Counted from the first letter of the stretch, positions 7,308 through 62,690 are shown. The stretch is 64,000 nt of DNA from an uncultured Bifidobacteriaceae bacterium (GCA_964619705.1 CAZUGF010000010.1:1234-65233); one strand, 5' to 3'. The notes: generated from the sequence alone by a model not told the origin. Translations and numbers: made by a program.

Positions 7308-7317
7308 AGGGATGCAA

Positions 7318-10143: not shown

Positions 10144-10448
10144 ACCACCAGACCTGCCACGCTGGCCAGTGACGACGTGAGGCGCCAGTCTACCGTCGAT
10201 CCGGCCGCGTCCAGCCGAGGCCACGCGTTCGCGCCGAGGGCTCAGGGCAGAGTCAGGGGTCCTGGCGTGCCGGCTCCTGCGGCTGCCCCACCACCAGGGA
10301 GGACGAGCCGTGTCTTGTCCGCCTAACTCCATTGATTCATAGGGCGTTGCGGGCGCAGGGCCGAACGGGACCATGCCCGGAACCGGAATGGCGTCCGGGC
10401 GGCCCGGCATCAGCCCCGTGCCCACGAACGGTCAGCCGATCGACGAGG

Positions 10449-25525: not shown

Positions 25526-25622
25526 CGAGGCGGCGGCGTGTTCCCTGTCCATCCCCGGCATGTTCCGGTGGATGGACAGGCGGGCACGCCGCGCGTCCCG
25601 ACCGGCACCATACACTGTAGGC

Positions 25623-26321: not shown

Positions 26322-26331
26322 CGGTCGGATC

Positions 26332-29013: not shown

Positions 29014-29071
29014 GAACGAGCGCCGGAGGGTGGTCCCCAGGCCGGCCGATGCGGTTGAATGGTGGAGGGTG

Positions 29072-30226: not shown

Positions 30227-30263
30227 CGGGCGCGTCCACGGCATCGGAGGTCGGGGTGCGCTC

Positions 30264-31304
30264 GTGAACATCGCCGTCATCGGCGCCGGGATGGCCGGCC
30301 TCACCGCCGCACGCGCGCTCCAGGAACGCGGCCACTCCGTGGCGGTGCTGGAGAAGGCACGGCGCCCGGGCGGGCGGATCTCGACACGACGAGTCACCAT
30401 CGAAGATCCCACGCACCCGTCCCTGGCCACCCTGGCATTCGACGACGGGGCACAGTACTTCACGGCTCGCGACCCGCGATTCGAGCGGGAAGTGGAAGCC
30501 TGGCAGCGCGCGCGCGTCGTCCAGGTCTGGCACGGCACGCTGGCGGCCTTCGACAGCGAGGGACGCGACCCCGTCGACGACGAGACGATGCGGTGGGTCG
30601 GCGTGCCGGGCATGGACGATCTCACGCGGCACCTGGCTCGCGGGCTCGATGTCACCTGCGGCCGGACGGTGACGAGCGTGGACCCCGACGGGAGTGGCGG
30701 AGCCGGTGCGCGCAGGTGGCGTCTCGCGACGAAGGACGGTGACGCACCCGGCCCATTCGATGCCGTCGTCCTGGCCGTGCCGGCGCCGGATGCCGTGCCG
30801 CTGCTCGTCCACACGCCGGAACTGGCCGCTGCCGCGGCGGCCGTCACGATGCACCCGTGCTGGTCCACGACGGTGGCGTTCGACGCGCGCGTGCCATCGG
30901 CCTTCGACGGCGCCTTCGTCAGCGCCAGCCCGCTCGGCTGGATCGCGCGCGATCGATCCAAGCCGAAGCGCGGCCTGGCGGAGACGTGGGTCCTCCACGC
31001 CGCCGCGTCGTGGAGCCGCGCGCACGCCGGCGATCGCGCCGACACCGTCGGCCCGTTCCTGCTGAACGCCTTCGCGGACCTGATCCGCGGACCCGTGCCG
31101 CGTCCTGTACACCTCGGGACGCGACGCTGGCGCGACGCGGCTGCCGACGTGCCGCTGACGCGCGGCGCCCTGATCGATCGCGCCGCGCGCATCGTCGTCT
31201 GCGGGGACTGGTGCCTGGGCACCCGGATCGAGTCCGCCTGCATGAGCGGTCTGCTCGCCGCGGAACTCCTGTCGGACATCGGAGAGGACGAGCGCAGCGC
31301 GTGA
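30264..31304 (+). CDS. NAD(P)/FAD-dependent oxidoreductase (renalase/amine-oxidase-like)
   Basis: 346 aa. IAVIGAGMAGLTAARAL...VAVLEKARRPGGR is the dinucleotide-binding motif. The C-terminal CGDWCLGTRIESACMSG is typical of the family. Confidence 0.85.
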   Translation: MNIAVIGAGMAGLTAARALQERGHSVAVLEKARRPGGRISTRRVTIEDPTHPSLATLAFDDGAQYFTARDPRFEREVEAWQRARVVQVWHGTLAAFDSEGRDPVDDETMRWVGVPGMDDLTRHLARGLDVTCGRTVTSVDPDGSGGAGARRWRLATKDGDAPGPFDAVVLAVPAPDAVPLLVHTPELAAAAAAVTMHPCWSTTVAFDARVPSAFDGAFVSASPLGWIARDRSKPKRGLAETWVLHAAASWSRAHAGDRADTVGPFLLNAFADLIRGPVPRPVHLGTRRWRDAAADVPLTRGALIDRAARIVVCGDWCLGTRIESACMSGLLAAELLSDIGEDERSA

Positions 31305-45451: not shown

Positions 45452-45700
45452 CTACAGGCCGGGCAGCAGGCTGCTGACGCGCCGGCGCTTCTGGCGCACG
45501 ACGACGACGACGGTCTGGGCGTTGGGGGCGAGGGTGCCGGCTGCCTTCAACTCCTCGACGCAGCCGTTGATCTCGTCGGCAAGCGGTCCGCCGCCGCGGC
45601 GCAGATCCTTGATGCGCTTGCGGCGCTGCTTGCCCATGTCGATGATGACGGGCGCTTTCGCGTCCGCCTTGGCGGGTGCGTCAGGTAATGTCGTAGCCAA
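45452..45700 (-). CDS. Small basic hypothetical protein
   Basis: This is the tail of ORF 45452..46072. A TTG start at 45700 has GAGGAG 7 nt upstream, and the ATG at 45637 is an alternative. It reads ...DMGKQRRKRIKDLRRGGGPLADEINGCVEELK...VVVVVRQKRRR and ends in LLPGL. Confidence 0.55.
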   Translation of the reverse strand: MATTLPDAPAKADAKAPVIIDMGKQRRKRIKDLRRGGGPLADEINGCVEELKAAGTLAPNAQTVVVVVRQKRRRVSSLLPGL

Positions 45701-45729: not shown

Positions 45730-46053
45730 CTACAGACCGAGCAGCGCGGCCGGACGCAGTTCCTTGACCGCCTTGCGGCTTGCCTTCACGACATTGCCGG
45801 GAACGTCCCGGACCCAGCCGTCCTTCCGCTTGCGATTCGACTTCTTGTGTCCGCGCAGGTAGTGGCCCGTGGCCGCGTCGCTGGCTTCCGCCAGCGAGCG
45901 CATGACCCGCTCGGCCGGCCGCAGCAGCGCGGTGCCCTTCTTCTTGCTGCGGCGGCGCTTGAACACGACAACGGGCGCCATCCCGCCGCTCGCATCCCGC
46001 TGCAGAACCGTGATCCGCTTCACTGACTTGCTCAGTCGTGGCATGTCCATCAT
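45730..46053 (-). CDS. Small basic hypothetical protein
   Basis: 107 aa with GAGGA 6 nt upstream of the ATG. It is Lys/Arg-rich (FKRRRSKKKG, HKKSNRKRKDGWVRD) and ends in ALLGL. Confidence 0.6.
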   Translation of the reverse strand: MMDMPRLSKSVKRITVLQRDASGGMAPVVVFKRRRSKKKGTALLRPAERVMRSLAEASDAATGHYLRGHKKSNRKRKDGWVRDVPGNVVKASRKAVKELRPAALLGL

Positions 46054-46139: not shown

Positions 46140-47954
46140 ATGATCGCCCCGTCGCTCACGCCCACGCGCCTGGTCGAATCCGGGACCCGGCCGCCCGTCC
46201 CCATCTCCGAGCCGCTGCGGCCCGGCCGCTGGCAGGGCCTGAGGGTGTGCCGTGTCCTGCTGGTCCTCGGGGCCTGGATGCTCGGCCGCAAGCTGACCGG
46301 ACGGCTCGACCCCAGGACCCTCGGCGTCCGCCTGCGCGCGACCTTCGAGGAACTGGGCGGGCTGTGGCTCCACGCCGGACACCTCCTGTCGCTGCGCATC
46401 GACATCTTCTCGCGTGAAGTGTGCGAGGAACTCGCGCGGCTGCACGGCAGGCGGTCGGGCTTCCCCTCGGCGGAGGCCCGGCGCATCCTCGAAGAGGACC
46501 TCGGGGCGCCCGTCGCGCACTACTTCGACGAGTTCTCGGACGTGCCGTTTGCCGTGGCCCCCATCGCGCAGGTCCACCGCGCGCGCCTGCGGGTGGAACA
46601 GCGCTACGTGGCCGTCAAGATTCAGCAGCCGTACATCGACGAGGTGTTCGCGCGCGATCTCACGCACATCAGCCGCCTGGTGCGCCTGATCATCGTGCTC
46701 AGGATTCGGCCGCACCTGCTGTGGGAGTTCGCCCTGGACGAACTCCGCGAACACACCACGCAGCTACTGAACCTGCACTACGAGGCGTCGGCCATCCGGC
46801 GGATGCGCCAGCGGCTCCGCGGCCAGCGCCTGAAGGTCCCGGAGATCTTCGCCCGCTACTGCGGGCGGCGGGTGCTCGTCACGGAGTTCATCCACGCGGC
46901 GCTGATGGCCGACCTGCTCGGCCTGATGCGGACCGATCCGGTCCGGCTGGATGCGTGGCTGCACGAGAACAACATCGAGCCCCGGCGCCTCGCGCGGCGG
47001 CTGATCTTCTCGACGCTGCGGCAGGTCCTGGAGCACAACCTCTATCACGGCGATCCCACGCCGGGACACATCGTGCTGCTGCGTGACAGCCGGGTGGCCC
47101 TCATCGAGTTCACGTCGGCGACGTTCTCCGAGCTGGAGTACCTGGAGAAGTTCCGGCTGTTCCTGAAGGCGCTGGCCACGCGCGACTACGCCAAGGCCGC
47201 CGACATGAGCTTCATGCTGTGCGCGAGCCTGCCGAACATCGATACCGAGGAGGTCAAGGCGGAACTGGTCCGCGCGCTGCGCGCGTGGGCCACGCGCACG
47301 CTGGTCAAGGAGCTGCCGTACCGCGAGAAGTCGCTCGACAACGCCTTCATCGAGGTGCTCCGCGTGCTCGTGCGCTACCGCTGCACCATGGCATGGGGCT
47401 GGCTCCGCATCCGGCGCGCCATCATGACGCTCGACCTGTCGATCGAGCACCTCCACGGCGATGTCAACTACACCCGCCTCCTGCAGCACTACTTCGATCA
47501 GGCGGAAGCGCGGGCGATCGACGCGATGACCGCCCCGCGCCTCGCGCGGCGCGCGATCGGCAGCTACCTGACGGCGCTCGACATCCAGGACCGCGTGAAC
47601 GAGTACACGATGTTCCAGGGCGCCCTGGTGCGGCGGCACGCGCAGGTCTTTCAGGCCACGACCAACAAGGCGGCCGCGGTGTTCGCGGCCATCCTGGCCG
47701 AGGTGGCGTTCCTGCTGGGCGTGGGCGTGGCGGCGGCACTCGTCGTGTTCCTGACGCAGCGCTACCCCGACCGGATGGCGCCCTGGCTCGGACCGCAGTT
47801 GACCGCCCTCGTCAACCGCGTCCCCGCGCTCGACCCGGCCGTCTGGATCGTGGTCGGCATCGTCCTCGGCTACTCGGCCTGGTCGATGTTCTGGCTGCGC
47901 CGCCGGCTGCGCGAGAAGGACGTCCGGCCGCACGAACGGGTGGCGGCAGTATGA
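46140..47954 (+). CDS. ABC1/UbiB-family atypical kinase (copy 1) with C-terminal TM helices
   Basis: ORF 46038..47954, with the start at MIAPSL (46140). APIAQVHRARL...VAVKIQQP (the A-rich loop and Lys of the ABC1 family), LNLHYEASAIRRM and HGDPTPGHIVLL are present. The C-terminal hydrophobic pair is AAVFAAILAEVAFLLGVGVAAALVVF / VWIVVGIVLGYSAWSMFW. Confidence 0.9.
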   Translation: MIAPSLTPTRLVESGTRPPVPISEPLRPGRWQGLRVCRVLLVLGAWMLGRKLTGRLDPRTLGVRLRATFEELGGLWLHAGHLLSLRIDIFSREVCEELARLHGRRSGFPSAEARRILEEDLGAPVAHYFDEFSDVPFAVAPIAQVHRARLRVEQRYVAVKIQQPYIDEVFARDLTHISRLVRLIIVLRIRPHLLWEFALDELREHTTQLLNLHYEASAIRRMRQRLRGQRLKVPEIFARYCGRRVLVTEFIHAALMADLLGLMRTDPVRLDAWLHENNIEPRRLARRLIFSTLRQVLEHNLYHGDPTPGHIVLLRDSRVALIEFTSATFSELEYLEKFRLFLKALATRDYAKAADMSFMLCASLPNIDTEEVKAELVRALRAWATRTLVKELPYREKSLDNAFIEVLRVLVRYRCTMAWGWLRIRRAIMTLDLSIEHLHGDVNYTRLLQHYFDQAEARAIDAMTAPRLARRAIGSYLTALDIQDRVNEYTMFQGALVRRHAQVFQATTNKAAAVFAAILAEVAFLLGVGVAAALVVFLTQRYPDRMAPWLGPQLTALVNRVPALDPAVWIVVGIVLGYSAWSMFWLRRRLREKDVRPHERVAAV

Positions 47955-49117
47955 GCCCCCTCGACCCGCGCGCACAGTGGACGGACGAAGCACTGGACGG
48001 CTGGCGGCAGGTCGCCGACCCGCTCGCCGATCCGTTGTCGCAGGAGGTCTTCGAGGCCGGAGGCCCGGCGGCCCTCGGGCGGCTGACGCGGCAGCTCGAC
48101 GACTGGGAAGCGCCGCTGCCGGACGGCCTCACGCCCGCGATGCGCGCCTACTTCGACACGCCGCTCAGCTACCCGGCCTGGGTCGATCAGACGAAGATCG
48201 CCCACGCCGAGGATCTCTTCGCCTCCTTCGGTCCCCTGACCGTCACGGGCCTGCTGCTGAACGGCTACCCGCAGTTCCTCACCTGCCCGGCCGGTGCGCG
48301 GGCGATGTACGCCGCGCGCGTCTTCAGTCCGGAATCGCTCGCCAGCCGGATGCTCGAGATCGCCCAGTTCGCGCTGTACATGGGCGCGCGAGGCGGCCTC
48401 TCGCTTGCGCCGCGCGCGGCCGACACGCCGCCCGCCGTCGGCCGCAGCGCGATGGCGTACCGCAAGCTGCGGATCGTGCATGCGAACATCCGCCTCCTCC
48501 TCACGTGCGACGCCGCGCGCGATGCCTGGGACGCGGAGGCACTCGGGCTCCCCATCAACCAGGAAGACCTGGCGATGGGGATGCTGTGCTTCTGTCTCGG
48601 TGCGATCGACGGGCTCCAGAAGTCCGGCTTCGATCTCACGCGCGAGGATCAGGAGGCCATGCTGATGGCGTGGCGCGCCGCGGTCTGGCTGCTCGGCCTG
48701 GTCGACGACCTGCAGCCGGCCGACATCCCGGCCGCACAGGCGCTGCACGGCCGAAGTCTCGAGCGGCACCAGCGCGGCACGCACGAAGGCGCGGTCGTCA
48801 TCCGCGAGATGCTGCACATCGTCGAGAGTCTGCTGCCGCCGGGCACTCGCCGCATCCCCGGCGCGCTCGTCCGGTTCCAGCTCGGGGATCGCCAGGCCGA
48901 CCTGATCGACGTGCCCAATCCGCGCTGGCTGCTGGCGGTCATTCGGGGGACCGAGCCGCTCTGGAAGACCACGCGGCTGTTTGCCTCGCTGTCCAAGCTG
49001 CTGAGCCCGCGCCTGCTGGCGTGGGCCTCGTCGCCCAACCGCCTGGGGGGCACGCGGCGCCTGGAGCTGCCGCCCGAACTGGCCGCGAGACTGGGCAGCA
49101 CGCGGCCGGACCGCTAG
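47951..49117 (+). CDS. DUF2236 / MpaB-family oxygenase-like protein
   Basis: This is the in-frame ATG of ORF 47219..49117, overlapping the UbiB stop (ATGA). The family assignment is from memory of the pattern (…YRKLRIVHANIRLLL…, all-helical, about 390 aa) and needs an HMM check. Confidence 0.6.
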   Translation: MSPLDPRAQWTDEALDGWRQVADPLADPLSQEVFEAGGPAALGRLTRQLDDWEAPLPDGLTPAMRAYFDTPLSYPAWVDQTKIAHAEDLFASFGPLTVTGLLLNGYPQFLTCPAGARAMYAARVFSPESLASRMLEIAQFALYMGARGGLSLAPRAADTPPAVGRSAMAYRKLRIVHANIRLLLTCDAARDAWDAEALGLPINQEDLAMGMLCFCLGAIDGLQKSGFDLTREDQEAMLMAWRAAVWLLGLVDDLQPADIPAAQALHGRSLERHQRGTHEGAVVIREMLHIVESLLPPGTRRIPGALVRFQLGDRQADLIDVPNPRWLLAVIRGTEPLWKTTRLFASLSKLLSPRLLAWASSPNRLGGTRRLELPPELAARLGSTRPDR

Positions 49118-49368
49118 TCCGCCGGCCGGCTGTTCTCGACAGTGCGCACAATTTCGCGGATGCTCGTATACGAGTCCAGGGCGTCGTCCGGCACGGAGAC
49201 ACCGAAGCGCTTCTCGATGACGGCCAGGATCTGGAGCCCCTGCAGGGAATCGACGTTCAGTTCCTGTTTGAGGTGGGTGTCCGGCGTGATCCGCTCGATC
49301 GGCGCCTTCGTGATGCGCGACACGATCTCCGTGACTTCCTGCTCGATGCTCACCGGCAGATTATGCAC
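49114..49368 (-). CDS. Stand-alone acyl carrier protein
   Basis: 84 aa with a GTG start (an alternative GTG at 49353 gives MSIEQEV...). The phosphopantetheine attachment motif is LNVDSLQGLQI. It shows the four-helix ACP pattern. Confidence 0.85.
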   Translation of the reverse strand: MHNLPVSIEQEVTEIVSRITKAPIERITPDTHLKQELNVDSLQGLQILAVIEKRFGVSVPDDALDSYTSIREIVRTVENSRPAD

Positions 49369-49384
49369 TGGCGGCGCCCGTTCG

Positions 49385-49398
49385 GGGTAATAATACCC
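49385..49398. promoter_or_regulatory. Inverted repeat GGGTA-ATAA-TACCC with embedded TAATAAT in the ACP / radical-SAM divergent spacer
   Basis: This is the only AT-rich patch in the 77-nt spacer 49369-49445. It is a plausible shared -10 element or operator. Confidence 0.35.
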
Positions 49399-49445
49399 GC
49401 CTCGAACCGGCGGGGATGCCCTCCGCCATGCGGAGGCCTATCCGT

Positions 49446-50813
49446 ATGCGTGTTGGACTGATCGCAATGAGCGGTGTCCGGGTCGTCAATCCCAGGCTGA
49501 TCGAACTGGGGGTCACGCTTCCACAGTTCGTCAGCCGCGGAGAGGTCATCGCGCAGCTACCCTCGCTGGCCCTCCTGCTGCTGGCCGCCGCCACGCCCGA
49601 AGACATCGACATCGCCTACATGGAGGTGGCCGACGTCAAGGCCGCCGAGGCCTTTGACACCTCGTTCGACCTGGTGGCCCTGACCTCTTATACCGCGATG
49701 GCCTACGAGATGTACGACCTCGCCGATCGCTACCGGGCGGCCGGCATCCCGGTCGTCATTGGCGGGCTCCATGCCTCGTTCACGCCCGACGAGACCAAGG
49801 AGCACGCCGATGCGGTGTGCATCGGCGAGGGCGAGACGCTCTGGCCGTTGATCCTCGCGGACTTCAGGGCCGGCGGCGTCAAGGCGCTGAAGCCCTTCTA
49901 CCGCGAAGCAGCGCCCGGCAGCTACGACCTGGCCCATTCCCCGATGCCGCGGTTCGACCTGCTGCTCGGCCGCAAGTACAACCGCATTACCGTGCAGACG
50001 GTGCGCGGCTGCCCGCTCGACTGCGAGTTCTGCGGCGCCTCCAAGCTCTATGCGGCCAGGTACCGCCGCAAGCCCGTCGAGATGGTCGTCGCCGAGGTGG
50101 CGCGCATCAAGGAACTGTGGGGCGACAACGCCTTCTTCGAACTGGCCGACGACAACTCGTTCGCCAACCGGTTCTGGGCGAAGGAGTTCCTGACGTCCAT
50201 CCAGGACCTCGACCTGCGCTGGTTCACCGAGACGGACCTGTCGATCGCCGACGATGACGAGCTGCTGAAGCTGCTGGCCAAGAGCGGCTGCCGCCAGATC
50301 CTGATCGGCCTGGAGTCGACCGACGCCCGCACGTTGAACGGCATCGACCGGGCCAACTGGAAGATGAGGCACCTGTCGCGCTACATGGACGCGATCAAGA
50401 AGATCCAGTCCTACGGCGTCACCGTCAACGGCTGCTTCATCGTCGGCAACGATGGCGACGACAAGGGCGTGTTCGAGCGGCTGCGCGACTTCATCGAGAA
50501 GAGCGAGCTGATCGAGGCGCAGGTCACCATCCTGACGCCCTTCCCCGGCACGCAGCTGCTGGCGCGCCTGCAGCGCGAGGGCCGGCTGCTGTCGGACCGC
50601 ATCTGGGACAAGTGCACGCTGTTCGACCTGACGTTCGAGCCCCGGCAGATGACGCCGGACGAGCTGATTGAAGGCCACTCGTGGCTGATGTCGCAGATCT
50701 ACAACCAGGAGCAGTTCACGCGCCGCAAGCGGCACTATGTGAACATCATGAAGGACATCAGCCTGCCGTGGATGGCTGAACAGACAGAGGCGTCGCTCGA
50801 ATTCTTCCGATGA
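49446..50813 (+). CDS. B12-binding-domain radical SAM enzyme (class B type)
   Basis: ORF 49416..50813, with the start at MRVGLIAMSG (49446) and GGAGG 9 nt upstream. The N-terminal Rossmann-like region (DLVALTSYT...IPVVIGGLH) is followed by the CxxxCxxC cluster RGCPLDCEFCG. Confidence 0.85.
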   Translation: MRVGLIAMSGVRVVNPRLIELGVTLPQFVSRGEVIAQLPSLALLLLAAATPEDIDIAYMEVADVKAAEAFDTSFDLVALTSYTAMAYEMYDLADRYRAAGIPVVIGGLHASFTPDETKEHADAVCIGEGETLWPLILADFRAGGVKALKPFYREAAPGSYDLAHSPMPRFDLLLGRKYNRITVQTVRGCPLDCEFCGASKLYAARYRRKPVEMVVAEVARIKELWGDNAFFELADDNSFANRFWAKEFLTSIQDLDLRWFTETDLSIADDDELLKLLAKSGCRQILIGLESTDARTLNGIDRANWKMRHLSRYMDAIKKIQSYGVTVNGCFIVGNDGDDKGVFERLRDFIEKSELIEAQVTILTPFPGTQLLARLQREGRLLSDRIWDKCTLFDLTFEPRQMTPDELIEGHSWLMSQIYNQEQFTRRKRHYVNIMKDISLPWMAEQTEASLEFFR

Positions 50814-51817
50814 CACCCGCCATCGCGTCGGCGTTTCGCGAGCCGCGCATCGTCGAGGCCGTGCGGCGGCTGAGCATGGTGAGCAACGCGCGCGCCGCCG
50901 CGGCCGTGGCCCGCCAGTGGCTCATCATCGCCGGCTGCATCGCCGGCGCGACGTGGATCGGCGGCCCGGCGGCCTACCTGGCCGCCATCCTCATCATCGC
51001 CGGGCGTCAACATGCCCTCGGCGTGCTGATGCACGACGCGGCGCACTATCGGCTCTTCTCGAGCCGCCGGCTGAACGACGCCGTGAGCGACCTGTGCTGC
51101 GCGCTGCCGTTCGGGCTGGCGACCGTACGCTATCGCTCCGACCATCTGAGGCACCACCAGCATGCCGTCACGGCCGAGGATCCGTACTGGGTCACCATGC
51201 AGGCGCACCCGGCGGGATGGCGCTGGCCGAAGTCGCCGGCGTGGGCCGCGGTGCGGCTGGCCGCGGACCTCCTGGGCCCCGGGGCCGTGTCGTTCCACCG
51301 GGAATGGTACGCATGGCTGCCGTGGCCCAACCACTTCTCGACGCGGGAGTATCCCTGCCGGCTGGACGCCGCCTCGCGCCTGCGATGCTACGGCTTCTTC
51401 CTGGCGCTCGGCGGTGCGCTCGCCTACACCGGCGCGTGGTGGGGATTCCTCGCGTTCTGGATCGTGCCGATGCTGACGTTCCTCCAGGTCTTCCTGCGTA
51501 TCCGCGGCGTGGCCGAACACCTCGCGCCTCCCGGGGAGGAGGGGCTCGACGCCACGCGCGATACCGTGCCGACGCTGCTCGAACGCGCCACCGTGGCGCC
51601 GCTCAACGTCAGCTATCACCTGACGCATCACATGTTCCCGGGGATCCCGTACTACAACCTGGCGCGCGTGAGCGCGCTGCTGCGTTCGAACCCCGCCTTC
51701 AGCGGCGAGGCCCGCGTCTCGATGAGCTACTTCGGCCGTTTCGGCGTGGTGTGGCGCGAGATGATTCGACGGCGCGGCCAGCCCGGCGGCGGCGCCGCGT
51801 CGCCGCACGGGGCCTGA
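50810..51817 (+). CDS. Membrane fatty-acid desaturase-family di-iron enzyme
   Basis: 335 aa. It has three His boxes, HDAAHY, HLRHHQH and HLTHHMF, and TM helices. ATGA overlap with the radical SAM stop. Confidence 0.85.
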   Translation: MTPAIASAFREPRIVEAVRRLSMVSNARAAAAVARQWLIIAGCIAGATWIGGPAAYLAAILIIAGRQHALGVLMHDAAHYRLFSSRRLNDAVSDLCCALPFGLATVRYRSDHLRHHQHAVTAEDPYWVTMQAHPAGWRWPKSPAWAAVRLAADLLGPGAVSFHREWYAWLPWPNHFSTREYPCRLDAASRLRCYGFFLALGGALAYTGAWWGFLAFWIVPMLTFLQVFLRIRGVAEHLAPPGEEGLDATRDTVPTLLERATVAPLNVSYHLTHHMFPGIPYYNLARVSALLRSNPAFSGEARVSMSYFGRFGVVWREMIRRRGQPGGGAASPHGA

Positions 51818-51834
51818 CGGCCGGCCTGTCCACG

Positions 51835-53580
51835 TCAGGGCTCTCGGGACAAGGCCGCCATCGTCCCGGCCACGTACGCGCGCCGCGTATCCTGCCGGCG
51901 CACCTTGCCGCTGGTCGTGCGCGGGATGGCACCTGGCGCCACCAGCCGGATGTCGTCGGGGCCCATGTCGAAGTGCAGCTGGCACGCCTCGCGGATCCGC
52001 CGCTGGATGACCTCCTGCGCTTCCGCATCGCGCCGGCGCGATTCCGCCACGACCACGATCCGCATGCCGGCCAGGTCCCCGACCCCTACCGCCACCACGC
52101 CGCCGGCAATGAGGCCCGGCACCTGCGCCACCGCACGCTCGATGTCCTGCGCGTAGTAGTTGCGGCCGAACCGGATCAGCAGGTCCTTCGAACGGCCGGT
52201 GATGAACAACTGGCCGTCAGCGACGTAGCCCAGGTCGCCGGTATGCAGCCACCCGTTCCTCAGCGCGGCCGTCGACTCCACCGGCCGGCCGTGGTAGCCG
52301 CGCATCACGGAGGGCCCCTGCACGACGACCTCCCCGACGACCCGCGCCCCCACCTCGCGGTCCTCCTCGTCGACGATGCGGATGTCGGAGCCCGGCAGGG
52401 GCCGCCCCACCGAGACGAAGGCACGGCTGCGCGCGGCACCGCTCGCGGGATGCGCCCGTCCCTCGCGCTCGAGCCGATCGGCATCGACGCGATCCACGGT
52501 GGGGGCGCCAGGTGCGCCGAACGTCACGGCCAGCGCACACTCCGCCAGTCCGTAGACGGGCCGAATCGTACCCGGCCGCAGGCCGTAGGCCGCAAACCGC
52601 GCCTCGAAGTCCTCCACCGTGGCCGGGTCGATGGGCTCGGCGCCGTTGAGCGCGACCTCCAGCGTCGTGAGGTCCACGCCGGCCATGTCCTCGTCAGTGA
52701 TGGTCTTCGTGCACAGGGCATAGGCGAAGTTCGGGGCCACGGCGGTGTCGGCGCGGACATCGGAGGCGTACTGGAGCCAGCGGGCCGGGTCCCTGACGAA
52801 GGCCTGCGGCGGCATCAGTACCTGCGGCCGCCTGGCATAGAGCGTCGTGAGCGCGCAGCCGATGAGCCCCATGTCGTGGTACAGCGGCAGCCAGCTGATC
52901 GAGGCCGTCGTCGGGCGCGCGAGGACGCCGCTGATCACGCGGGCGTTCGCAATCACCGCCTCGTGGGTCAGCGCCACGCCCTTGGGATCGCTGGTGCTGC
53001 CCGAGGTGTACTGCAGCAGCGCCAGGTCTGACGGATCGACGTCACCGATGTCGCCGGCTCCCATCGCGGCGGGCGGCACGTCATCCGACGGGACGAGCGG
53101 CAGCATGCGATCGTGCTCCCGCAGGTAGTCGGCCAGGACGCGCAGCGATCGTTCCGGCCCCGCCAGAGCCGCGGCCGCGCAGTCGTCGGCAACGCGCAGC
53201 ACCGCCGCGAAGAGGACGGCCAGCTTGTCGGGCCGCGCGGAGTGCGGAGGCGCGACGGGCACAGGCGTGGCGCCCAGCAGCAGCGCGCCGAAGAACGCAT
53301 CGAAGAATCCCGGGCCGGTCGGCGTCATGACGATGACGCGATCCCCGGCCCTGACACCGGCGGCCGACAGGCGCGCGGCGCGCGCGGCGGCGCCCGCACG
53401 CAGCCGCGCCCAGGTGATCGCCTCGGGCTCGCGGCCGTGATCCACGAAAAGCAGGGCCGTCGCCTCCGGCGCGAGATCGGCGGCGGCCAGCAGCTCCGTC
53501 AGGGTGCGCGCGCGCGGCGCCTCCCACAACCGCTGCTGCAGGTCGAGGTGAGCCGTGAACGGCTCCAGCCGCGTCCGCAT
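51835..53580 (-). CDS. Fatty acyl-AMP ligase (FAAL-type adenylate-forming enzyme)
   Basis: This is the last 581 aa of ORF 51835..54624, with the start at MRTRLEPF (53580). LQYTSGSTSDPKGVALTHEAVIAN, APNFAYALC, YGLAECAL, TGDLGY and TSGKVRR are present. These resemble FadD32/FAAL-type enzymes rather than CoA ligases. Confidence 0.8.
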   Translation of the reverse strand: MRTRLEPFTAHLDLQQRLWEAPRARTLTELLAAADLAPEATALLFVDHGREPEAITWARLRAGAAARAARLSAAGVRAGDRVIVMTPTGPGFFDAFFGALLLGATPVPVAPPHSARPDKLAVLFAAVLRVADDCAAAALAGPERSLRVLADYLREHDRMLPLVPSDDVPPAAMGAGDIGDVDPSDLALLQYTSGSTSDPKGVALTHEAVIANARVISGVLARPTTASISWLPLYHDMGLIGCALTTLYARRPQVLMPPQAFVRDPARWLQYASDVRADTAVAPNFAYALCTKTITDEDMAGVDLTTLEVALNGAEPIDPATVEDFEARFAAYGLRPGTIRPVYGLAECALAVTFGAPGAPTVDRVDADRLEREGRAHPASGAARSRAFVSVGRPLPGSDIRIVDEEDREVGARVVGEVVVQGPSVMRGYHGRPVESTAALRNGWLHTGDLGYVADGQLFITGRSKDLLIRFGRNYYAQDIERAVAQVPGLIAGGVVAVGVGDLAGMRIVVVAESRRRDAEAQEVIQRRIREACQLHFDMGPDDIRLVAPGAIPRTTSGKVRRQDTRRAYVAGTMAALSREP

Positions 53581-53582
53581 CG

Positions 53583-54365
53583 TCAACGAGGCGCACCGGC
53601 GGCGGGACGCCCGGCACTGGCCGTCCAGCACTGGCCGGCCATCGTCGGCTCGATCGCATGCACGGTGAGGCCTGCCGCTTCGATCATCGCGCGCAGTTGC
53701 CCGGCGGTGGCAAACTGGTAGTCGCCGGACTGCTCCGCGCGCTTGATGCGCCACACGTAGTAGAAGATGCGGCTGGTGTTGACGAGATAGCGCACGCCGA
53801 GCGCCGCGGTGCCGAGCAGGCCGTCGGTCTGCCGGCGATCGCGCAGCGTCTCCGTGTAGACGCGCCACGTGTTGAAGCCCGTCGCGAAGACGGAGATGGC
53901 GATGCGGCCCCCGGGCTTCAGCACGCGCGCCAGCTCGGTGACGGCAAAGCGCTGGCGCTCCGGCACGAGGTAGTGCAGGACGAGACTGCAGGCAATCTTG
54001 TCGAACGTGGCCGTGTCGAAGGGCAGCGGGCGCGTCAGGTCCGCGACACGAAACGTCGCCGACGGCACCTTGCGGCGGCAGCGTTCCAGCGCGGGTTCGC
54101 AGAAGTCGATGCCGGTGACCCGGGCGCCCGGCACGGCCAGCACCTCGGTCACGTTGGCGGTGCCGCTGCCGGCATCCAGGATCACGTCGCCGGGGGCCGG
54201 TTCCAGCAGTTCCGCGTGCCGCTCGACCATCCGGCGGTACGGCGGCGACTCGTTCAGCGTGTCGTAGAACGAAAAATACCGCTCCCAGAATCGCTGCAGG
54301 GCACGCGATCGCGGCTCGGCCGGCGGCTCGGCGACGGCCGCATCCGGACTGGTCGGCTGGGTCAT
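53583..54365 (-). CDS. Class I SAM-dependent methyltransferase
   Basis: ORF 53583..54398, with the start at MTQPTS (54365). Motif I is ILDAGSGTANVTE, and the post-I/II region is VTGIDFC...LKPGGRIAI. Its stop is 2 nt before the FAAL start. Confidence 0.85.
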   Translation of the reverse strand: MTQPTSPDAAVAEPPAEPRSRALQRFWERYFSFYDTLNESPPYRRMVERHAELLEPAPGDVILDAGSGTANVTEVLAVPGARVTGIDFCEPALERCRRKVPSATFRVADLTRPLPFDTATFDKIACSLVLHYLVPERQRFAVTELARVLKPGGRIAISVFATGFNTWRVYTETLRDRRQTDGLLGTAALGVRYLVNTSRIFYYVWRIKRAEQSGDYQFATAGQLRAMIEAAGLTVHAIEPTMAGQCWTASAGRPAAGAPR

Positions 54366-54385
54366 GCGGCGTGATAATAGCCCAC

Positions 54386-54841
54386 ATGCGCCCGACATAC
54401 GAGTTCACGCTGTGGGTCGTGGTGATGGTGCTGGGTCTCCACTTCCTCGAGGAGTTCGCGCTCGACCTGCGCACCTGGCTCGAAGGCGTGCTCCAGGTGC
54501 CGGTGACCTGGGAGCAGTGCCATCTCGTCAACGCGTGCGTCACCCTGATGGCGATCGGCGGCACGGCCATCGGGTGGCGCCGGCCGGAGCTGAGCCTCAT
54601 CATGCCGGCGATTGTGATCGTCAACGCGATCGTGTTTCACCTCGGCTTCTCGATCATCTGGCGCAGCTACTCCCCGGGCACGGTGTCGGCGCTGCTGCTG
54701 TTCGTGCCGGCGGGCCTGTGGTGCTACATCGGCGCGCATCGCGACGGCGTGCTGACGCGCCGCGCGATCATCGTCTCCGTGGGCGCCGCGGTGTTCGTCC
54801 ACCTGTGGCTGCTGGCGTTTCAGCTGTTCGGGCCGCCCTGA
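54386..54841 (+). CDS. HXXEE-domain membrane protein
   Basis: ORF 54371..54841, with the ATG at 54386 preferred. It has the LHFLEEF motif in the first TM helix and four to five TM helices. Its 3' end overlaps the RND gene 3' end by 22 nt. Confidence 0.7.
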   Translation: MRPTYEFTLWVVVMVLGLHFLEEFALDLRTWLEGVLQVPVTWEQCHLVNACVTLMAIGGTAIGWRRPELSLIMPAIVIVNAIVFHLGFSIIWRSYSPGTVSALLLFVPAGLWCYIGAHRDGVLTRRAIIVSVGAAVFVHLWLLAFQLFGPP

Positions 54842-58414: not shown

Positions 58415-59518
58415 CTACCTCGTGGGGTTGACGCGCTCGCCGTCGGTGACGATGGTGGCGCCCTGGACGATCAGCTGCTCGCTTCCGGTCAGCCCGTCGA
58501 TGACGGTGATGTCGTTGCCGAGCAGGTCGCCCAGGCGCACGCGGCGGAGCTCCGCCGTCGAGACCCCGCCCTGCTGGCGCAGCACGTAGACCGCATAGCC
58601 CTCGCTCTCGCCGGGGGGACGGACGACAGCCGACAGGGGGATGACCAGCGCGTCCGCGCGCGCCTGCGCCGGATCGCCGGGACGCGTGGCCTGCACGACC
58701 GCCACCATGCCCGGCTTGAGCGCGCCGTCGGCGTTGGGCAGCGTGATCTCGATCTCGAACAGGCGGCTGCGCGGGTCGGCGGTCGGCGACACCTTGGTGA
58801 TGCGTCCCTCGAAGCGGCGATCGGGCAGCGCGTCGGTGCGAACGGCTTCGGTCGCGCCGGCCGGGAACGTCGGGAGCAGGGTGTCGGGCACGCCGACCAC
58901 CACCTTCACGGTGCGGATGTCGGCGATCACGAACCCCGGCGTGCCCGGACCGACGAGCGATCCCACTTCGACGAGCCGCTTGAGCACCACGCCGGCCAGC
59001 GGGGCGCGCAGCGCGGCATCGCCCTGCGCCAGTTCGGCCTCGCCGACGAGCGCCGTGGCGCCCGACATGCGCGCATCGATGGCGGCCAGCGTGGCCCGCG
59101 CCTGATCGAGATCCGGCCTGGTGAGGCTCTTCGACGCAAACAGCGCTTCCGCGCGGGCGACGGCGGCGGCAGCCGCCTCGCGCGACGCGGTCGCCTCGCT
59201 CAACTGGGCGCGTGCCTGGCTGACCTTCGCGTCGTAGTCCGCGCTCCGCACCGACGCCAGCACCGTGCCGGCGGCGACGTGATCGCCGTCCTGGATGGGC
59301 CGCCCGCCGATGGACGCGATCGACGTCACGTAGCCGCCGACGCGGAAGGCCAGGTCCACGCGCGTGCCTGGCTCGATCGCCGCCGAGTAGCGCAGCGGCA
59401 GGTCGATCGACTGCCGCTGCACGTCCGCCACCAGCACCGGCGTGAGGGGCTTGTCGTAGGGCACCGGCCGGCTGCAACCGGAGGCCAGCAGGATCGCCAG
59501 GAGGATGGGACGTGTCAT
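58415..59518 (-). CDS. Efflux RND periplasmic adaptor (MFP/HlyD family) lipoprotein
   Basis: 367 aa. The lipobox is LLASGCS. It also has a coiled-coil hairpin and beta-barrel motifs (GMVAVVQA, PLSAVV). Confidence 0.9.
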   Translation of the reverse strand: MTRPILLAILLASGCSRPVPYDKPLTPVLVADVQRQSIDLPLRYSAAIEPGTRVDLAFRVGGYVTSIASIGGRPIQDGDHVAAGTVLASVRSADYDAKVSQARAQLSEATASREAAAAAVARAEALFASKSLTRPDLDQARATLAAIDARMSGATALVGEAELAQGDAALRAPLAGVVLKRLVEVGSLVGPGTPGFVIADIRTVKVVVGVPDTLLPTFPAGATEAVRTDALPDRRFEGRITKVSPTADPRSRLFEIEITLPNADGALKPGMVAVVQATRPGDPAQARADALVIPLSAVVRPPGESEGYAVYVLRQQGGVSTAELRRVRLGDLLGNDITVIDGLTGSEQLIVQGATIVTDGERVNPTR

Positions 59519-60882
59519 GGGTCGGCCCTCGCCCGTTCGAATTCCGCACGGGCACTCCAGTACTGGCCGATGGCCTGCTCACGGGCGGTGTCGGCCTCGG
59601 CAAGGCGCGCCTGCGCCTCGAGCACGTCGCGCTGCAGGGCGGCATCCTGCGCAAATCGATCGGTGGCCACACGTACGCGCTCGCGCGCGGCCTCCCGGGC
59701 GGCATCGCTGATGGTGACCATGGCGTAGGCATCCTGCAGCGCCCGGAAGCGCGCGCGCACGTCCACGCGCACCAGCGACTCGGCCTCGGCCGTCCCCAGC
59801 GCCGCCTGTCCCTGCTGCAGCTGCGCGCGCGCGCGTTCGGCCCGGCGGCGTCCCCAGTCCCACGGCTCCCACGTGGCCAGCACGCCGAAGAGCGCGCCGT
59901 GGTGCGGCAGCACCTCGAACCCGTAGAACCCGGTGTACTCGAACGCCAGGCTCAGGTCCGGCATGCCGGGCGTCCTGGTGGCGGACATCGCCGCTTCGGC
60001 CCGGCGCGCCTGCAGCCGGGCGATGCGGACTTCCGGGCGCGCGGACAGCGCCAGCCGCTCCGCCTCGCGCAGGTCGATCTCCGCGGCTTCGGCGGGACGG
60101 AACGGCTCCACCGCGAACGTGTCGTCGACGTCGCGGCCGAGCAGGACATTCAGTTGCTCGCGATAGCCCTGCGCCGCTCGTCCGGCGATGGCGGCCTGCT
60201 GCTCCTGGGCCTGCACGCCCGCGCGGGCCGCCAGCACGTCGGCCGGCAGCGCCGCCTCCTGCGATGCATACGCCTCGCTGAGCCGCAGCAGTTCGCGCGC
60301 GTAGCGCGCCGATTCCTCGCGCGCCCGCGCTGCCCCTTCGGCCTGCACGACCGCGTAGTAGGCCTGCCTGACCTGGGCCACGAGCGCGGCCTCCTGCAGC
60401 CGTACCTGCTCGGCGGCCACCTGCGCACCCAGTTCGGCAGCGTCTTCGCCGTGGCCGATCCGGGAGAGTTGCGTCAGCGGCTGGATGACACTGGCAAAGA
60501 CCACCGTGCTGAGGCGAGGGTTGGTCGTGATCGTCACGTCGGACGGGGGAATGGGGCCCGTCGTGGGCAGCGTCCCGAAGACGCCCTCCGCAAAGCGGAA
60601 ACTCATCGGCGCCACCAGCGTGCCGGTGCCCACCTTGACGTCGAACAGCGGCTTCTTCTGCGCGCGGAAGATCGCGACCTCGTGCGCGGCGCTGTCCACG
60701 TCCAGGCGCGCGGCCTGCAGCGGCCGATTCTGCCGGCGGGCCAGCGCCACGGCTTCGTCGAGCGTCAGGACCCGCACCTCGGTGCCGGCCGTCTGGGCGG
60801 CCGCGCCGGCGGCGAGCGCGACCGACAACGCGGCGGCGATCCACCCTGCCCGCGCCCTCACCGGCCACGGGCCACGCGTCAT
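59515..60882 (-). CDS. TolC-family outer membrane efflux protein
   Basis: This is the last 455 aa of ORF 59515..61875, with the start at MTRGPWPV (60882). It has a signal peptide and then LTLDEAVALARRQNRPLQAARLDV.... There are ATGA overlaps at both ends. Confidence 0.85.
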   Translation of the reverse strand: MTRGPWPVRARAGWIAAALSVALAAGAAAQTAGTEVRVLTLDEAVALARRQNRPLQAARLDVDSAAHEVAIFRAQKKPLFDVKVGTGTLVAPMSFRFAEGVFGTLPTTGPIPPSDVTITTNPRLSTVVFASVIQPLTQLSRIGHGEDAAELGAQVAAEQVRLQEAALVAQVRQAYYAVVQAEGAARAREESARYARELLRLSEAYASQEAALPADVLAARAGVQAQEQQAAIAGRAAQGYREQLNVLLGRDVDDTFAVEPFRPAEAAEIDLREAERLALSARPEVRIARLQARRAEAAMSATRTPGMPDLSLAFEYTGFYGFEVLPHHGALFGVLATWEPWDWGRRRAERARAQLQQGQAALGTAEAESLVRVDVRARFRALQDAYAMVTISDAAREAARERVRVATDRFAQDAALQRDVLEAQARLAEADTAREQAIGQYWSARAEFERARADP

Positions 60883-62690
60883 GCGGCCACCGCCTGGCGA
60901 TGGGGCGCCACCCGGTTGGCGCCGATCGCCCGGTGCACGCGCAGGAGCGCGAGCCACAGCCACGCGTCGATCGCGAGTACCACCACGAGGGACCGCGGAT
61001 CGGCGGCCGGCACACCGAGCGGCAGGCCGCCCAGCCATCCCGTCACCGCCGGCCCCAGCACCGTCATCCCCGTCGCCGCCGCCGCCGCGATCGTCGCCGC
61101 GGCCTGCACGAGCACGAGCACCCGGCCGATCGACAGGAGCGTCGACGCGGACGCCGTGGTCCGATCGACGATGCCCTGGAAGACCGTGACTTCGCGGCGA
61201 ATCAGCGTGGCCTGCAGCGCGACGTACTCCTGGACGCGCGCCGGCAGGTCCAGTGCCTCGTTGACGATCGTCATCGCGCGCTGGACGCCCATCACGTCGA
61301 CCGCCCGGCGTGCGCGGCGTCCTTCCGCCTTCCGGAAGTAGTCCGCCGTCACCCGGCGATAGTCGATGCCGGGGTGCAGTTCGATGAGCGATGCGTCGAG
61401 CGTGGAGCTGGCGCGGTGCAGCCGGAGCCACGCCCAGTCCATCGTGCAGCCGTGGCCCAGCAGCACCTGCATCACGTCGAGCGTGAGGTTGTCCATGGAC
61501 TTGTCGTGAAACGGCAGCGCCCGGACCCACGACCGCTTGGCCCAGGCCTGCAGCACGCGCGTCAGCCGCGCGTGCACGTGTGCGAGATCGACAGCCGGCA
61601 GGCTGCCGCAGAGCATCAGGCACAGGTCGGCGCCCTTCGAGAACTGGCCCGTGGCCAGCGCACGCATGAAGCCGCGGAACTTCTGCAGGTACTCGCGCTC
61701 GGTGAAGTTGGTCGTGCCGAAGTCGATCAGCGCGATGCGGCTGTCGCGCAGCAGGCCGATGTTGCCCGGGTGCATGTCGCCGTGGAAGCGGTTGTCTTCC
61801 ATCATCTGGCGCTGGAACGAGTGAACAAGGCGCCGCGCGACGAGCCGCGGGCGGACGCGGTTCTCGGCCTGCCACGCCCGCAGTCGGCCCGGATCGGTCT
61901 GCGCCACACGCAGGTAGTCGGCCATCAGCACCATGTCCAGGAACTCGGTGACCATCACCCGCGGGCGGCAGTGGCGGGAGAACACCGCGGGCACGTAGAC
62001 ACGGTGGGCCTCGAGCCGGCGCCGCATCGTCCGGGTGGAGGCGGCCTCGAACCCGAAGTCGAGCTCCTCGCGCATGATCTGGCGCAGCTCGGCGAGGCCA
62101 TCCTTCCAGCGCATGTGGCGATAGATGCCGAGGGCATGGGCGATGTGGGCCACGCCGGCCATGACCGCGAAGTCACGCGAGAAGAGCTCAGCGGAGTACG
62201 GCTTCTGCACCTTCACCGCGACCCACGTCCGCTCGATGCGCAGCCGCGCGCGGTGCACCTGGCCGATGGACGCCGCGGCGAACGGGTCGTCTTCCCACAC
62301 GTCGAAGATCTGGTCGATCGGCGCGCCGAGTTCCCGTTCGACGATCTGCCGCGCGAGGGCCGGTGGAAACCCGAGGGCACGGGTCTGCAGGCGCGCCAGC
62401 TCGCGGCAGAGCGCCACCGGCAGCAGGTCGATGCGCAGCGCCAGGAACTGGCCGGCCTTGATCCACAGGCCGCCCATGCCTTCGAACGTCGTCCGCACCT
62501 CGCGCGCGAAGCGATCGGGGCCGTCTTCCCGGTCCAGCCGTGAGCGGAGGAACGCGATCGCGAGGCCCGCGAAACACGCCAGGACGTAGAGGATGCGCCC
62601 CCCCGACGGCCGCCGTACCGCCCTGATGGGAACCGCGGGTCGCGGGTCGCCCGGCAGCAACGGAGTCGGGATCAAGGACGCCTTGAGCAT
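60879..62690 (-). CDS. ABC1/UbiB-family atypical kinase (copy 2) with C-terminal TM helices
   Basis: 603 aa. ASIGQVHRARL...VAVKVQKP and HGDMHPGNIGLL are present. It is clearly paralogous to 46140..47954 along its whole length. It is the first gene of the TolC-MFP-RND operon. Confidence 0.9.
   Translation of the reverse strand: MLKASLIPTPLLPGDPRPAVPIRAVRRPSGGRILYVLACFAGLAIAFLRSRLDREDGPDRFAREVRTTFEGMGGLWIKAGQFLALRIDLLPVALCRELARLQTRALGFPPALARQIVERELGAPIDQIFDVWEDDPFAAASIGQVHRARLRIERTWVAVKVQKPYSAELFSRDFAVMAGVAHIAHALGIYRHMRWKDGLAELRQIMREELDFGFEAASTRTMRRRLEAHRVYVPAVFSRHCRPRVMVTEFLDMVLMADYLRVAQTDPGRLRAWQAENRVRPRLVARRLVHSFQRQMMEDNRFHGDMHPGNIGLLRDSRIALIDFGTTNFTEREYLQKFRGFMRALATGQFSKGADLCLMLCGSLPAVDLAHVHARLTRVLQAWAKRSWVRALPFHDKSMDNLTLDVMQVLLGHGCTMDWAWLRLHRASSTLDASLIELHPGIDYRRVTADYFRKAEGRRARRAVDVMGVQRAMTIVNEALDLPARVQEYVALQATLIRREVTVFQGIVDRTTASASTLLSIGRVLVLVQAAATIAAAAATGMTVLGPAVTGWLGGLPLGVPAADPRSLVVVLAIDAWLWLALLRVHRAIGANRVAPHRQAVAA

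Follow-up and report, generated by a model that had tools for sequence, protein, structure and literature searches.

A conserved cassette joining a B12-domain radical SAM enzyme to a dedicated acyl carrier protein and a fatty acyl-AMP ligase: a candidate for carrier-bound acyl-chain tailoring in uncultured bacteria

The radical S-adenosylmethionine (SAM) enzymes that modify lipids were reviewed in 2026, the list comprising Tes, Mss, Gms, GrsA/B, Gmm, Cds, HpnH/J/P/R, Jaw5 and the unsolved ladderane enzymes (PMC13459092). We describe here a gene cassette of an uncultured soil acidobacterium, in DNA deposited under the name of an uncultured Bifidobacteriaceae bacterium (GCA_964619705.1, CAZUGF010000010.1:1234-65233), in which a radical SAM enzyme with a B12-binding domain (hereafter rSAM) lies with a stand-alone acyl carrier protein (ACP) and a fatty acyl-AMP ligase (FAAL), a composition that nothing in this review matches (PMC13459092). 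A full-text search of the open literature combining FAAL, radical SAM, ACP and B12 returned no equivalent cluster either, in agreement with a preliminary description of this DNA, made from the sequence alone, whose author knew of no characterized cluster of such composition. Throughout, ‘the window’ is the whole 64-kb stretch (G+C approx. 70%), and domain calls were made with Pfam and NCBIfam models, bit scores being compared with curated cutoffs.

FAAL–ACP partnerships are well known from natural-product cassettes. In cyanobacterial CylA/CylB-type clusters, an ACP-bound fatty acid is functionalized mid-chain, and mycobacterial FAAL systems (FadD-Pks) come with an MmpL exporter. Like them, the cassette studied here sets an insertion-bearing FAAL beside a dedicated carrier, with tailoring predicted on unactivated carbons, and an exporter of the resistance-nodulation-division (RND) type is found nearby, as MmpL is in mycobacteria. 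Unlike them, it has no polyketide synthase (PKS) or non-ribosomal peptide synthetase (NRPS) acceptor, its tailoring would be carried out by a B12-domain rSAM rather than by a halogenase or a PKS module, and the organisms that carry it are uncultured Acidobacteriota. A B12-domain radical SAM enzyme also stands beside an ACP-based acyl system, uncharacterized in both cases, in the swf cluster of sponge symbionts (SwfA/B/C; PMC3908369) and in the anammox ladderane cluster (PMC13459092). These two clusters build the chain by PKS/fatty acid synthase or by FabF/FabZ homologues, whereas the FAAL described here would recruit a pre-made acid. Because the pathway logic is thus familiar, the cassette is less exotic than the phrase ‘no known analogue’ would imply: new is an undescribed rSAM family, and known is the logic of carrier-protein-dependent acyl tailoring. 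With moderate confidence, we interpret the cassette as a unit for such tailoring, a reading built on its gene content, on the insertion in its FAAL, on its dedicated ACP and on its synteny across classes and phyla. The genes concerned are as follows (window coordinates; loci of relatives are numbered with the prefix L).

46140..47954, plus strand: ABC1a, an ABC1/UbiB-type atypical kinase-like protein (PF03109, 152 bits; 604 amino acids according to the L086 gene call)
47951..49117, plus strand: MpaB/Lcp-family (DUF2236) putative haem oxygenase, hereafter MpaB-like protein (PF09995, 33.6 bits; cutoff 23)
49114..49368, minus strand: stand-alone ACP (PF00550, 60 bits), with its serine in a DSL motif
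49446..50813, plus strand: B12-binding-domain radical SAM enzyme, rSAM (455 amino acids; PF02310, PF04055 and PF13282/DUF4070), with the motif CPLDCEFC
50810..51817, plus strand: membrane di-iron, three-His-box protein of the desaturase/hydroxylase family (PF00487, 123 bits)
51835..53580, minus strand: FAAL (PF00501, 207 bits; NF006624, 413 bits)
53583..54365, minus strand: class I SAM-dependent methyltransferase, MT (PF08241, 75 bits; PF13649, 71 bits)
54386..54841, plus strand: HXXEE-motif membrane protein, divergent from MT (PF13787, 44 bits)

Genes in this set are tightly packed. The stop of ABC1a and the start of the MpaB-like gene overlap by 4 nt, and the latter gene converges on the ACP gene, again with a 4-nt overlap. 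The ACP gene, as the preliminary description had noted, is transcribed divergently from that of rSAM, and direct reading of the junctions bore out two further details given there: the rSAM stop and the desaturase-like start share an ATGA, which couples the two genes translationally, and the MT stop (TGA) is followed after 2 nt by the ATG of FAAL, which places MT just upstream in the FAAL operon. The HXXEE membrane protein and the B12-type N-terminus and cysteine motif of rSAM were likewise recovered by the domain models. The start proposed for rSAM, 49416, had to be moved: since all homologues begin with MRVGLIAMSG, we set it 10 codons further on, at 49446, which gives 455 rather than 465 amino acids. 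The longest open reading frames of MT and HXXEE would begin at 54398 and 54371, respectively; by comparison with L089, the starts are probably at 54365 and 54386. Two amendments are wider. The preliminary description had bounded its cluster at 49114-54841, and the conserved unit is larger, spanning approximately 45.4-62.7 kb; moreover, a conserved Lcp/MpaB-like oxygenase and two ABC1 proteins were overlooked among the partners.

The order of these genes is kept in relatives, as the preliminary description had proposed to check. Close relatives of rSAM (65-92% identity) all come from metagenome-assembled genomes (MAGs), namely Acidobacteriota (Vicinamibacterales, Pyrinomonadaceae and Thermoanaerobaculia), some labelled Gemmatimonadaceae, and one alphaproteobacterium. 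In what follows, clade A is the rSAM clade of the window and clade B the loci of more distant rSAM relatives; genes in relatives' loci were called with a codon-position GC caller, checked against L001 gene calls. The order ABC1(+), MpaB-like(+), ACP(-), rSAM(+), FAAL(-), MT(-), HXXEE(+) is conserved in L001, L006-L009, L011-L013, L015 and L089. Genes for DUF6200 and DUF6312 proteins precede this ordered block, and in most such loci RND pump, membrane fusion and outer-membrane factor genes (minus strand) plus a second ABC1 gene follow it. A Thermoanaerobaculia MAG (L014) has the same genes in a rearranged order, and the alphaproteobacterial MAG (L002) has a single co-directional operon, desaturase-rSAM-MT-FAAL-ACP. 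The MT gene is kept beside FAAL in clade A (cluster C8), the HXXEE gene in nine clade A loci (cluster C5) and in L089. As an aside on provenance, contig_1584 (L019/L001; 2.6 Mb), labelled ‘uncultured Acidimicrobiia bacterium’, bears a TolC-type outer-membrane factor and an acidobacterial cassette at 84% identity, given which its Acidimicrobiia label looks doubtful.

Neighbours might nonetheless be adjacent by chance or through shared ancestry, without any cooperation between their products. The alternating orientation of the genes, which form five transcription units, is compatible with this, as is the absence of a consensus promoter or terminator pattern in a scan of the cassette; in the alignment of the ACP–rSAM intergenic region, conservation ends at the closest relative. 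This gene set, however, survives rearrangement in L014 and persists as one operon in another phylum (L002), and ACP and rSAM are neighbours time and again, in more than 50 loci spread over many phyla. As about 10 loci share the order, one is reshuffled and one is a single operon, gene adjacency is best explained by function, and chance is strongly disfavoured, to the point of being scarcely credible. The divergent ACP–rSAM intergenic region is 77 bp long and includes a G+C-rich inverted repeat at 49396-49414 (CCCGCCGG...GGCGGG), then TATTATTACC; this repeat is common to the window and L089 only.

The adenylating enzyme is confirmed as a FAAL, which the preliminary description had deduced from motifs. 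Its best curated model is NF006624 (‘fatty acyl-AMP ligase’, 413 bits), followed by other FAAL models, all below their curated cutoffs (413 versus 600 for NF006624; 267-279 versus 975-1100 bits for FadD32, FadD28 and FadD21), a profile that places it in the FAAL group but outside every named subfamily. Its closest relatives in the Protein Data Bank (PDB) are true FAALs (7r7f, 3pbk, 3kxw, FadD23, FadD32 and FadD28), aligned in one piece over residues 34-577, whereas coenzyme A (CoA) ligases of the PDB align in two pieces, with a break at approximately 386-394. Indeed, MAFFT alignment revealed an insertion of 26-32 amino acids between YGLAE and GRPLPG (A5 YGxxE to A6) in the ligases of the window, L001, L002, L011 and L014, and missing in seven clade B AMP-ligases and two Aas-type domains. 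This insertion is FAAL-specific; the enzyme is therefore not of the insertion-free kind that the preliminary description had allowed for, and it is predicted to load the thiol of a carrier protein rather than CoA.

The carrier itself would be the neighbouring ACP, whose serine lies in the context ...ELNVDSLQGLQ.... Its scores fall below the cutoffs of the AcpP equivalogs (TIGR00517: 37 versus 70 bits; PRK00982 variants: 24-41 versus 66-106 bits), and of the 13 clade A loci, 12 have it beside rSAM, as do 39 of 68 other loci. By these scores and this position, it qualifies as a dedicated carrier rather than as the housekeeping AcpP. A carrier of this kind, conserved in the cassette, adds to the case for a FAAL and is indirect evidence for the predicted loading of a protein thiol. 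We also considered whether this ACP-like protein could be the substrate of an rSAM of the type acting on ribosomally synthesized peptides, which is unlikely given the DSL serine and the conserved adenylating enzymes.

The rSAM combines a B12-binding domain (PF02310, 48.8 bits; cutoff 32.1), a radical SAM domain (PF04055, 60.8 bits) and a C-terminal PF13282/DUF4070. Across 81 members of the family, drawn from more than 10 phyla, conservation reaches at least 97% at 93 positions; the cysteines of the CX3CX2C motif (C189, C193 and C196) are invariant, and three additional ones (C282, C330 and C390) are 96-100% conserved. C282 is also present in AprD4, and C330 and C390 are family-specific; these three might be ligands of an auxiliary cluster or catalytic thiols. 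A profile search of the PDB retrieved AprD4 (E 7e-14), MgmA and CysS only. The AlphaFold2 model (pLDDT 81, pTM 0.83) has its best structural match in AprD4 (6fd2, TM 0.74), followed by MgmA, CysS, TokK, TsrM and OxsB, so that the modelled enzyme has a class-B-type fold. Fold matches to MiaB/RimO raised a methylthiotransferase reading; it was rejected, because the N-terminal domain of rSAM carries no conserved cysteines.

Three groups of described enzymes come close to rSAM in different respects. HpnP is reported to have the same architecture, B12-binding, Radical_SAM and DUF4070 (PMC10697835). With HpnR and HpnJ, which give the best NCBIfam matches, it has lipid substrates in aerobic bacteria, but here the scores are far under cutoff, no hpn gene is nearby, and the partners of rSAM are an ACP and a FAAL instead. 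CysS (9n1b) and TokK (7kdy), class B (cobalamin-dependent) enzymes, share with rSAM the N-terminal B12 Rossmann domain and the CX3CX2C barrel (Foldseek probability 1.0, TMq 0.61-0.64), and their substrates are pantetheine-linked, just as that of rSAM is proposed to sit on a phosphopantetheine arm. Unlike them, rSAM would act on a fatty acyl chain; it is only 16-18% identical to them, counts 455 amino acids against approximately 630-660, and has a C-terminal DUF4070 and two or three extra near-invariant cysteines. AprD4 is similar in length (454 amino acids) and is the best structural and PDB sequence match, but it shares 19% identity and has an unrelated genomic context.

From these parts we infer chemical steps, a substrate, a use of cobalamin and a product fate. 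FAAL would adenylate a free long-chain fatty or fatty-like acid and, rather than make a CoA thioester, load it onto the phosphopantetheine of the dedicated ACP. On the chain so tethered, a 5'-deoxyadenosyl radical generated by rSAM would abstract hydrogen at an unactivated carbon, which rSAM would then modify, with C-methylation as the likeliest outcome and C-C bond formation or rearrangement as the alternative, since methyl transfer via cobalamin is the commonest outcome in its fold class. The class I MT, which has generic matches only in the PDB and NCBIfam, would add a second, conventional methyl group, and in the window's sub-lineage only, the di-iron enzyme would desaturate or hydroxylate the chain. 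The Lcp-like oxygenase and the ABC1 proteins would probably supply, act on or deliver the lipid substrate, and the RND system may export the product, most likely a specialized envelope lipid.

Several observations weigh against this pathway. No acyltransferase, thioesterase or condensation enzyme is found in the cassette; release of the chain from ACP is therefore unexplained, which is the main gap. For the same reason, the ‘insertion into a membrane lipid’ of the preliminary description has no identified step, even though its idea of an ACP-tethered lipid pathway gains from the lipid context of the wider rSAM family. At L010, ABC1-MpaB-ACP-rSAM is kept with no FAAL, MT or HXXEE nearby. RND adjacency is restricted to close relatives and may reflect shared ancestry. 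The rSAM reaches the cutoff of no NCBIfam model, whether HpnJ (89 of 578 bits), HpnR (80 of 650), the P-methyltransferase family (78 of 575), BchE (74 of 481), PhpK (69 of 600), MgmA/MJ_0865 (66 of 360), the ladderane family TIGR04072 (60 of 360) or AprD4 (50 of 500), and its clade B relatives are likewise below cutoff; it belongs to a large uncharacterized family, outside any family of known function, a point on which the preliminary description is supported. Its closest fold, AprD4, has the same B12-type domain but is an aminoglycoside 1,2-diol dehydratase that uses no cobalamin; methylation by rSAM is therefore only a prior, and its use of cobalamin putative. Finally, clade A cluster members are found in MAGs only, all from uncultured organisms, hence no lipid phenotype can be cited for this clade.

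Beyond clade A, the family of rSAM is large. In a scan of one genome per species, at least 579 species-level genomes, spread over more than 10 phyla, had a relative; with a Bryobacterales member as query, 7957 of 8000 candidates were at E<=1e-60, and in this one branch many members are 75-80% identical across Methylomirabilota, Gemmataceae, Armatimonadota and Acidobacteria. As the rSAM–ACP pairing spans hundreds of species, the finding is more general than the preliminary description had envisaged. For a count of its neighbours, we took 68 non-redundant loci that lie outside clade A and represent more than 10 phyla. In 27 of them, rSAM adjoins an adenylating enzyme, devoid of the FAAL insertion and with fatty-acid-CoA ligases as best models. 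LplT-PlsC-Aas (MFS-PlsC-AMP-binding) fusions for lysophospholipid re-acylation are near rSAM in 9-10 loci, and other recurrent neighbours are a PAP2 phosphatase, an AurF-like di-iron protein, an acyltransferase domain, sigma-54 activators and lipid-type ABC exporters. This company of ACP, acyl-activating enzymes, LplT-PlsC-Aas, PAP2 and desaturase-like genes makes a lipid substrate likelier.

The most frequent neighbour is a small polytopic membrane protein, which lies directly upstream of rSAM in 58 of the 68 loci and is absent from the window's clade. It has the motif WSFDGPxPVPxxLGxYxxxxRRLxRLGHIAFFGLG and no Pfam or NCBIfam match, and its clusters C3, C11 and C15 are homologous (hhalign 99%). 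Examples are the following.

L049:7789-8208: small membrane protein
L059:9208-9738: small membrane protein
L028:9297-10004: small membrane protein
L033:2-1333: small membrane protein
approximately 55 other loci: small membrane protein

The HXXEE protein was tried as the clade A counterpart of this C3 family and discarded (hhalign probability below 1%). In two Rhodobacteraceae available in culture, Rhodophyticola sp. MJ-SS7 and Tropicimonas aquimaris CCUG 60524, the module is reduced to membrane protein, ACP and rSAM, preceded in Rhodophyticola by a TetR gene and followed by a major facilitator superfamily (MFS) transporter. In some low-GC loci (L004:8667-11568 and L020), two paralogous B12-domain radical SAM genes stand in tandem ahead of genes for an ACP and an alpha/beta hydrolase.

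This pairing with a membrane protein also suits another reading, in which rSAM acts directly on membrane-embedded lipids, like HpnP, Tes, Mss and Grs, by methylation or tail-to-tail coupling, FAAL and ACP merely feeding or re-acylating, and in which the family would provide the aerobic route to lipids of the iso-diabolic-acid or branched glycerol dialkyl glycerol tetraether (brGDGT) type. The recurring LplT-PlsC-Aas fusions fit it, as does the fact that Acidobacteria make iso-diabolic acid yet lack Mss (PMC13159169). It is also in keeping with one Methylomirabilales MAG (GCA_046758505.1; L093:3137-15674), where rSAM lies amid BcrAD_BadFG, DUF2229, a sigma-54 activator, FAD_binding_4 and an LplT-PlsC-Aas fusion, BcrAD_BadFG and DUF2229 being domains of the ether-lipid enzyme Ger (PMC13159169). 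Such a Ger-like neighbourhood was nevertheless met only once, so that Ger-like genes were dropped as recurrent neighbours. Furthermore, Rhodobacteraceae isolates and cyanobacteria have members of the family and are not known to produce such lipids, the C3 partner is absent from clade A, no cultured iso-diabolic-acid producer is found among the best 80 genome matches, and the tight coupling to ACP favours a carrier-bound substrate. We regard direct action on membrane lipids as rather improbable. 

A related and broader idea is that the rSAM–ACP family is the missing oxygen-compatible machinery for the unusual alkyl chains of soil-bacterial membrane lipids, either methylating them mid-chain, as in brGDGTs, or coupling them tail to tail, as in iso-diabolic acid. 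To our knowledge, no enzyme for either reaction has been identified in Acidobacteria. Since Acidobacteria lack Mss (PMC13159169), a link to their membrane-spanning or extra-methylated lipids is attractive; we nonetheless consider this circumstantial link a long shot. The link to mid-chain methylated acidobacterial lipids, raised in the preliminary description, is likewise speculation, the close relatives all being uncultured.

The MpaB-like protein brings in a further possibility for the origin of the activated acid. It matches the rubber oxygenase Lcp (5o1l/5o1m, E 3e-14, residues 21-332), and in its segment KLRIVHANIR, VHANIR aligns with VHAAVR of LcpK30 (5o1m), where the chain His167 corresponds to His198 in 5o1l numbering. 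We take this histidine to be the proximal haem ligand. The position matching the distal-pocket Lys167 of Lcp is not conserved. The protein is an Lcp homologue and putative haem oxygenase that keeps the proximal-His position. The ABC1/UbiB proteins are tied to the handling of isoprenoid lipids, and in L001 (6658-9660) ABC1 and MpaB/Lcp-like domains, encoded by separate genes in the window, are fused into one 1000-aa protein, a Rosetta-stone hint of joint function. The acid could accordingly be a cleavage product: the oxygenase, together with ABC1, would cleave an unsaturated or isoprenoid lipid at a C=C bond, FAAL and ACP would capture the fragment, and rSAM and MT would remodel it. The homology to Lcp with its retained histidine, the link of ABC1 to isoprenoids and the placement of the MpaB-like gene against ACP, which holds for those Acidobacteriota loci of clade A that extend far enough upstream (cluster C4, 10 clade A loci; in L001 in its fused form with ABC1), are in line with this. 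The L002 operon, however, lacks both MpaB and ABC1, the Pfam match scores a modest 33.6 bits, the Lys167 equivalent is missing, and synteny is the sole support; we judge such a cleavage route quite improbable.

The desaturase-like gene turned out to be less central than the preliminary description had assumed in counting it as a cluster member. Nine histidines are invariant among 13 sequences (H75, H79, H112, H115, H116, H237, H270, H273 and H274), in three boxes (HDAAH, HLRHH, EH and HLTHH), confirming the three boxes read earlier. The PF00487 score is well above cutoff (123 versus 29.7 bits), and among NCBIfam models that of GntB, an arginine hydroxylase, scores highest (105 bits; cutoff 380), DesA and DesB scoring approximately 20 bits. 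By its domain and boxes, the protein is a member of the desaturase/hydroxylase superfamily and may be either a desaturase or a hydroxylase. Homologues at 77-85% identity sit only beside rSAM, in the window's sub-lineage; the gene is missing from L001 and L006-L015, including L001 and L006, whose rSAMs are 84-85% identical to that of the window. By this distribution it is an accessory gene of the window's sub-lineage, outside the conserved core. More distant homologues (40-47% identity) were examined as rSAM partners and set aside, their contexts being unrelated and without rSAM. As FA_desaturase genes abut rSAM in three independent lineages (the window's sub-lineage, the alphaproteobacterium L002 and Bryobacterales L092/L057), the association is a recurrent one.

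On either side of this gene set, the conserved unit contains the following genes.

45452..45700, minus strand: DUF6200 small basic protein (PF19702, 74 bits), at the same spot in L086 and L089 and present as cluster C7 in eight clade A loci
45730..46053, minus strand: DUF6312 small basic protein (PF19831, 84 bits), cluster C13 in L001, L009, L010, L012 and L015
54820-58413, minus strand: AcrB-like RND pump (PF00873, 473 bits)
58415-59518, minus strand: membrane fusion protein of a tripartite RND system
59515-60882, minus strand: outer-membrane factor of the tripartite RND system (PF02321, 124 bits)
60879..62690, minus strand: ABC1b, a second ABC1 kinase-like protein and first gene of the RND operon (PF03109, 174 bits)

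The DUF6200 and DUF6312 proteins are conserved upstream neighbours, and the functional tie of each to the cassette is uncertain. ABC1b is 42% identical to ABC1a and has the same arrangement in L001 and L089.

The RND system is a possible exporter of the cassette product, and its presence suggests that this product could be a diffusible or secreted lipid-like secondary metabolite (signal, surfactant or antibiotic) rather than an envelope lipid. Directly after the cassette, the tripartite RND genes and the second ABC1 are found in the window and, at the same position, in L001, L008, L009, L012, L013, L015 and L089; other members of the rSAM family adjoin MFS or DevA/Lol-type ABC exporters, and clusters for lipopeptides and lipid natural products typically combine a FAAL with an ACP. 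RND genes are not present in L002, L011 and L014, however, and the cassette lies amid chromosomal housekeeping genes (asd, lysC, dapB, dapA, dnaX, ybaB and recR). No PKS, NRPS or other scaffold builder was detected in the window either: Pfam scans of nearly all window genes of at least 100 amino acids and tblastn with a relative's PKS and KASIII yielded no PKS, NRPS, ketoacyl synthase (KAS), hopanoid (hpn), ole, polyunsaturated fatty acid (PUFA), pls or elb genes, an absence that the preliminary description had rightly reported. Secretion of a metabolite is in our view unlikely.

Some features of the surrounding DNA may be recorded. No second copy of rSAM, ACP or FAAL and no C3 homologue was found in the window. 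The stretch at approximately 42.8-45.4 kb is covered by gene calls (an AI-2E transporter, TetR and ABA4-like genes). In the closely related locus L001 (1-5994), KASIII, a dehydratase-ACP protein and a large modular PKS, none of which is in the window, are located 4-10 kb upstream of the cassette. Elsewhere in the window (25560-31304), genes for a MacB-type ABC ATPase, an FtsX/MacB permease, a CrtC/AttH-like double-lipocalin protein and an FAD amine-oxidase-type protein follow one another and may form another lipid- or carotenoid-handling unit, and at 6738-10425 an extracytoplasmic function (ECF) sigma factor gene adjoins that of a 1035-aa Ser/Thr protein kinase with WD40/PD40 repeats.

In any case, the carrier-dependent reading designates a testable target for enzyme discovery, namely a large and conserved B12-domain rSAM family without a characterized member, tied to ACP and lipid genes. 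Genetic work is within reach, as the simpler C3-ACP-rSAM module has two carriers in culture. The organisms concerned belong to dominant and mostly uncultured soil phyla (Acidobacteriota, Planctomycetota, Verrucomicrobiota, Methylomirabilota and Binatia), whose membrane-lipid biosynthesis is poorly known, including that of lipids used as palaeoclimate proxies; even a negative answer on the lipid link would narrow the search. If the proposal is true, radical SAM chemistry of the class B type would gain a new class of substrate, the carrier-bound fatty acyl chain.

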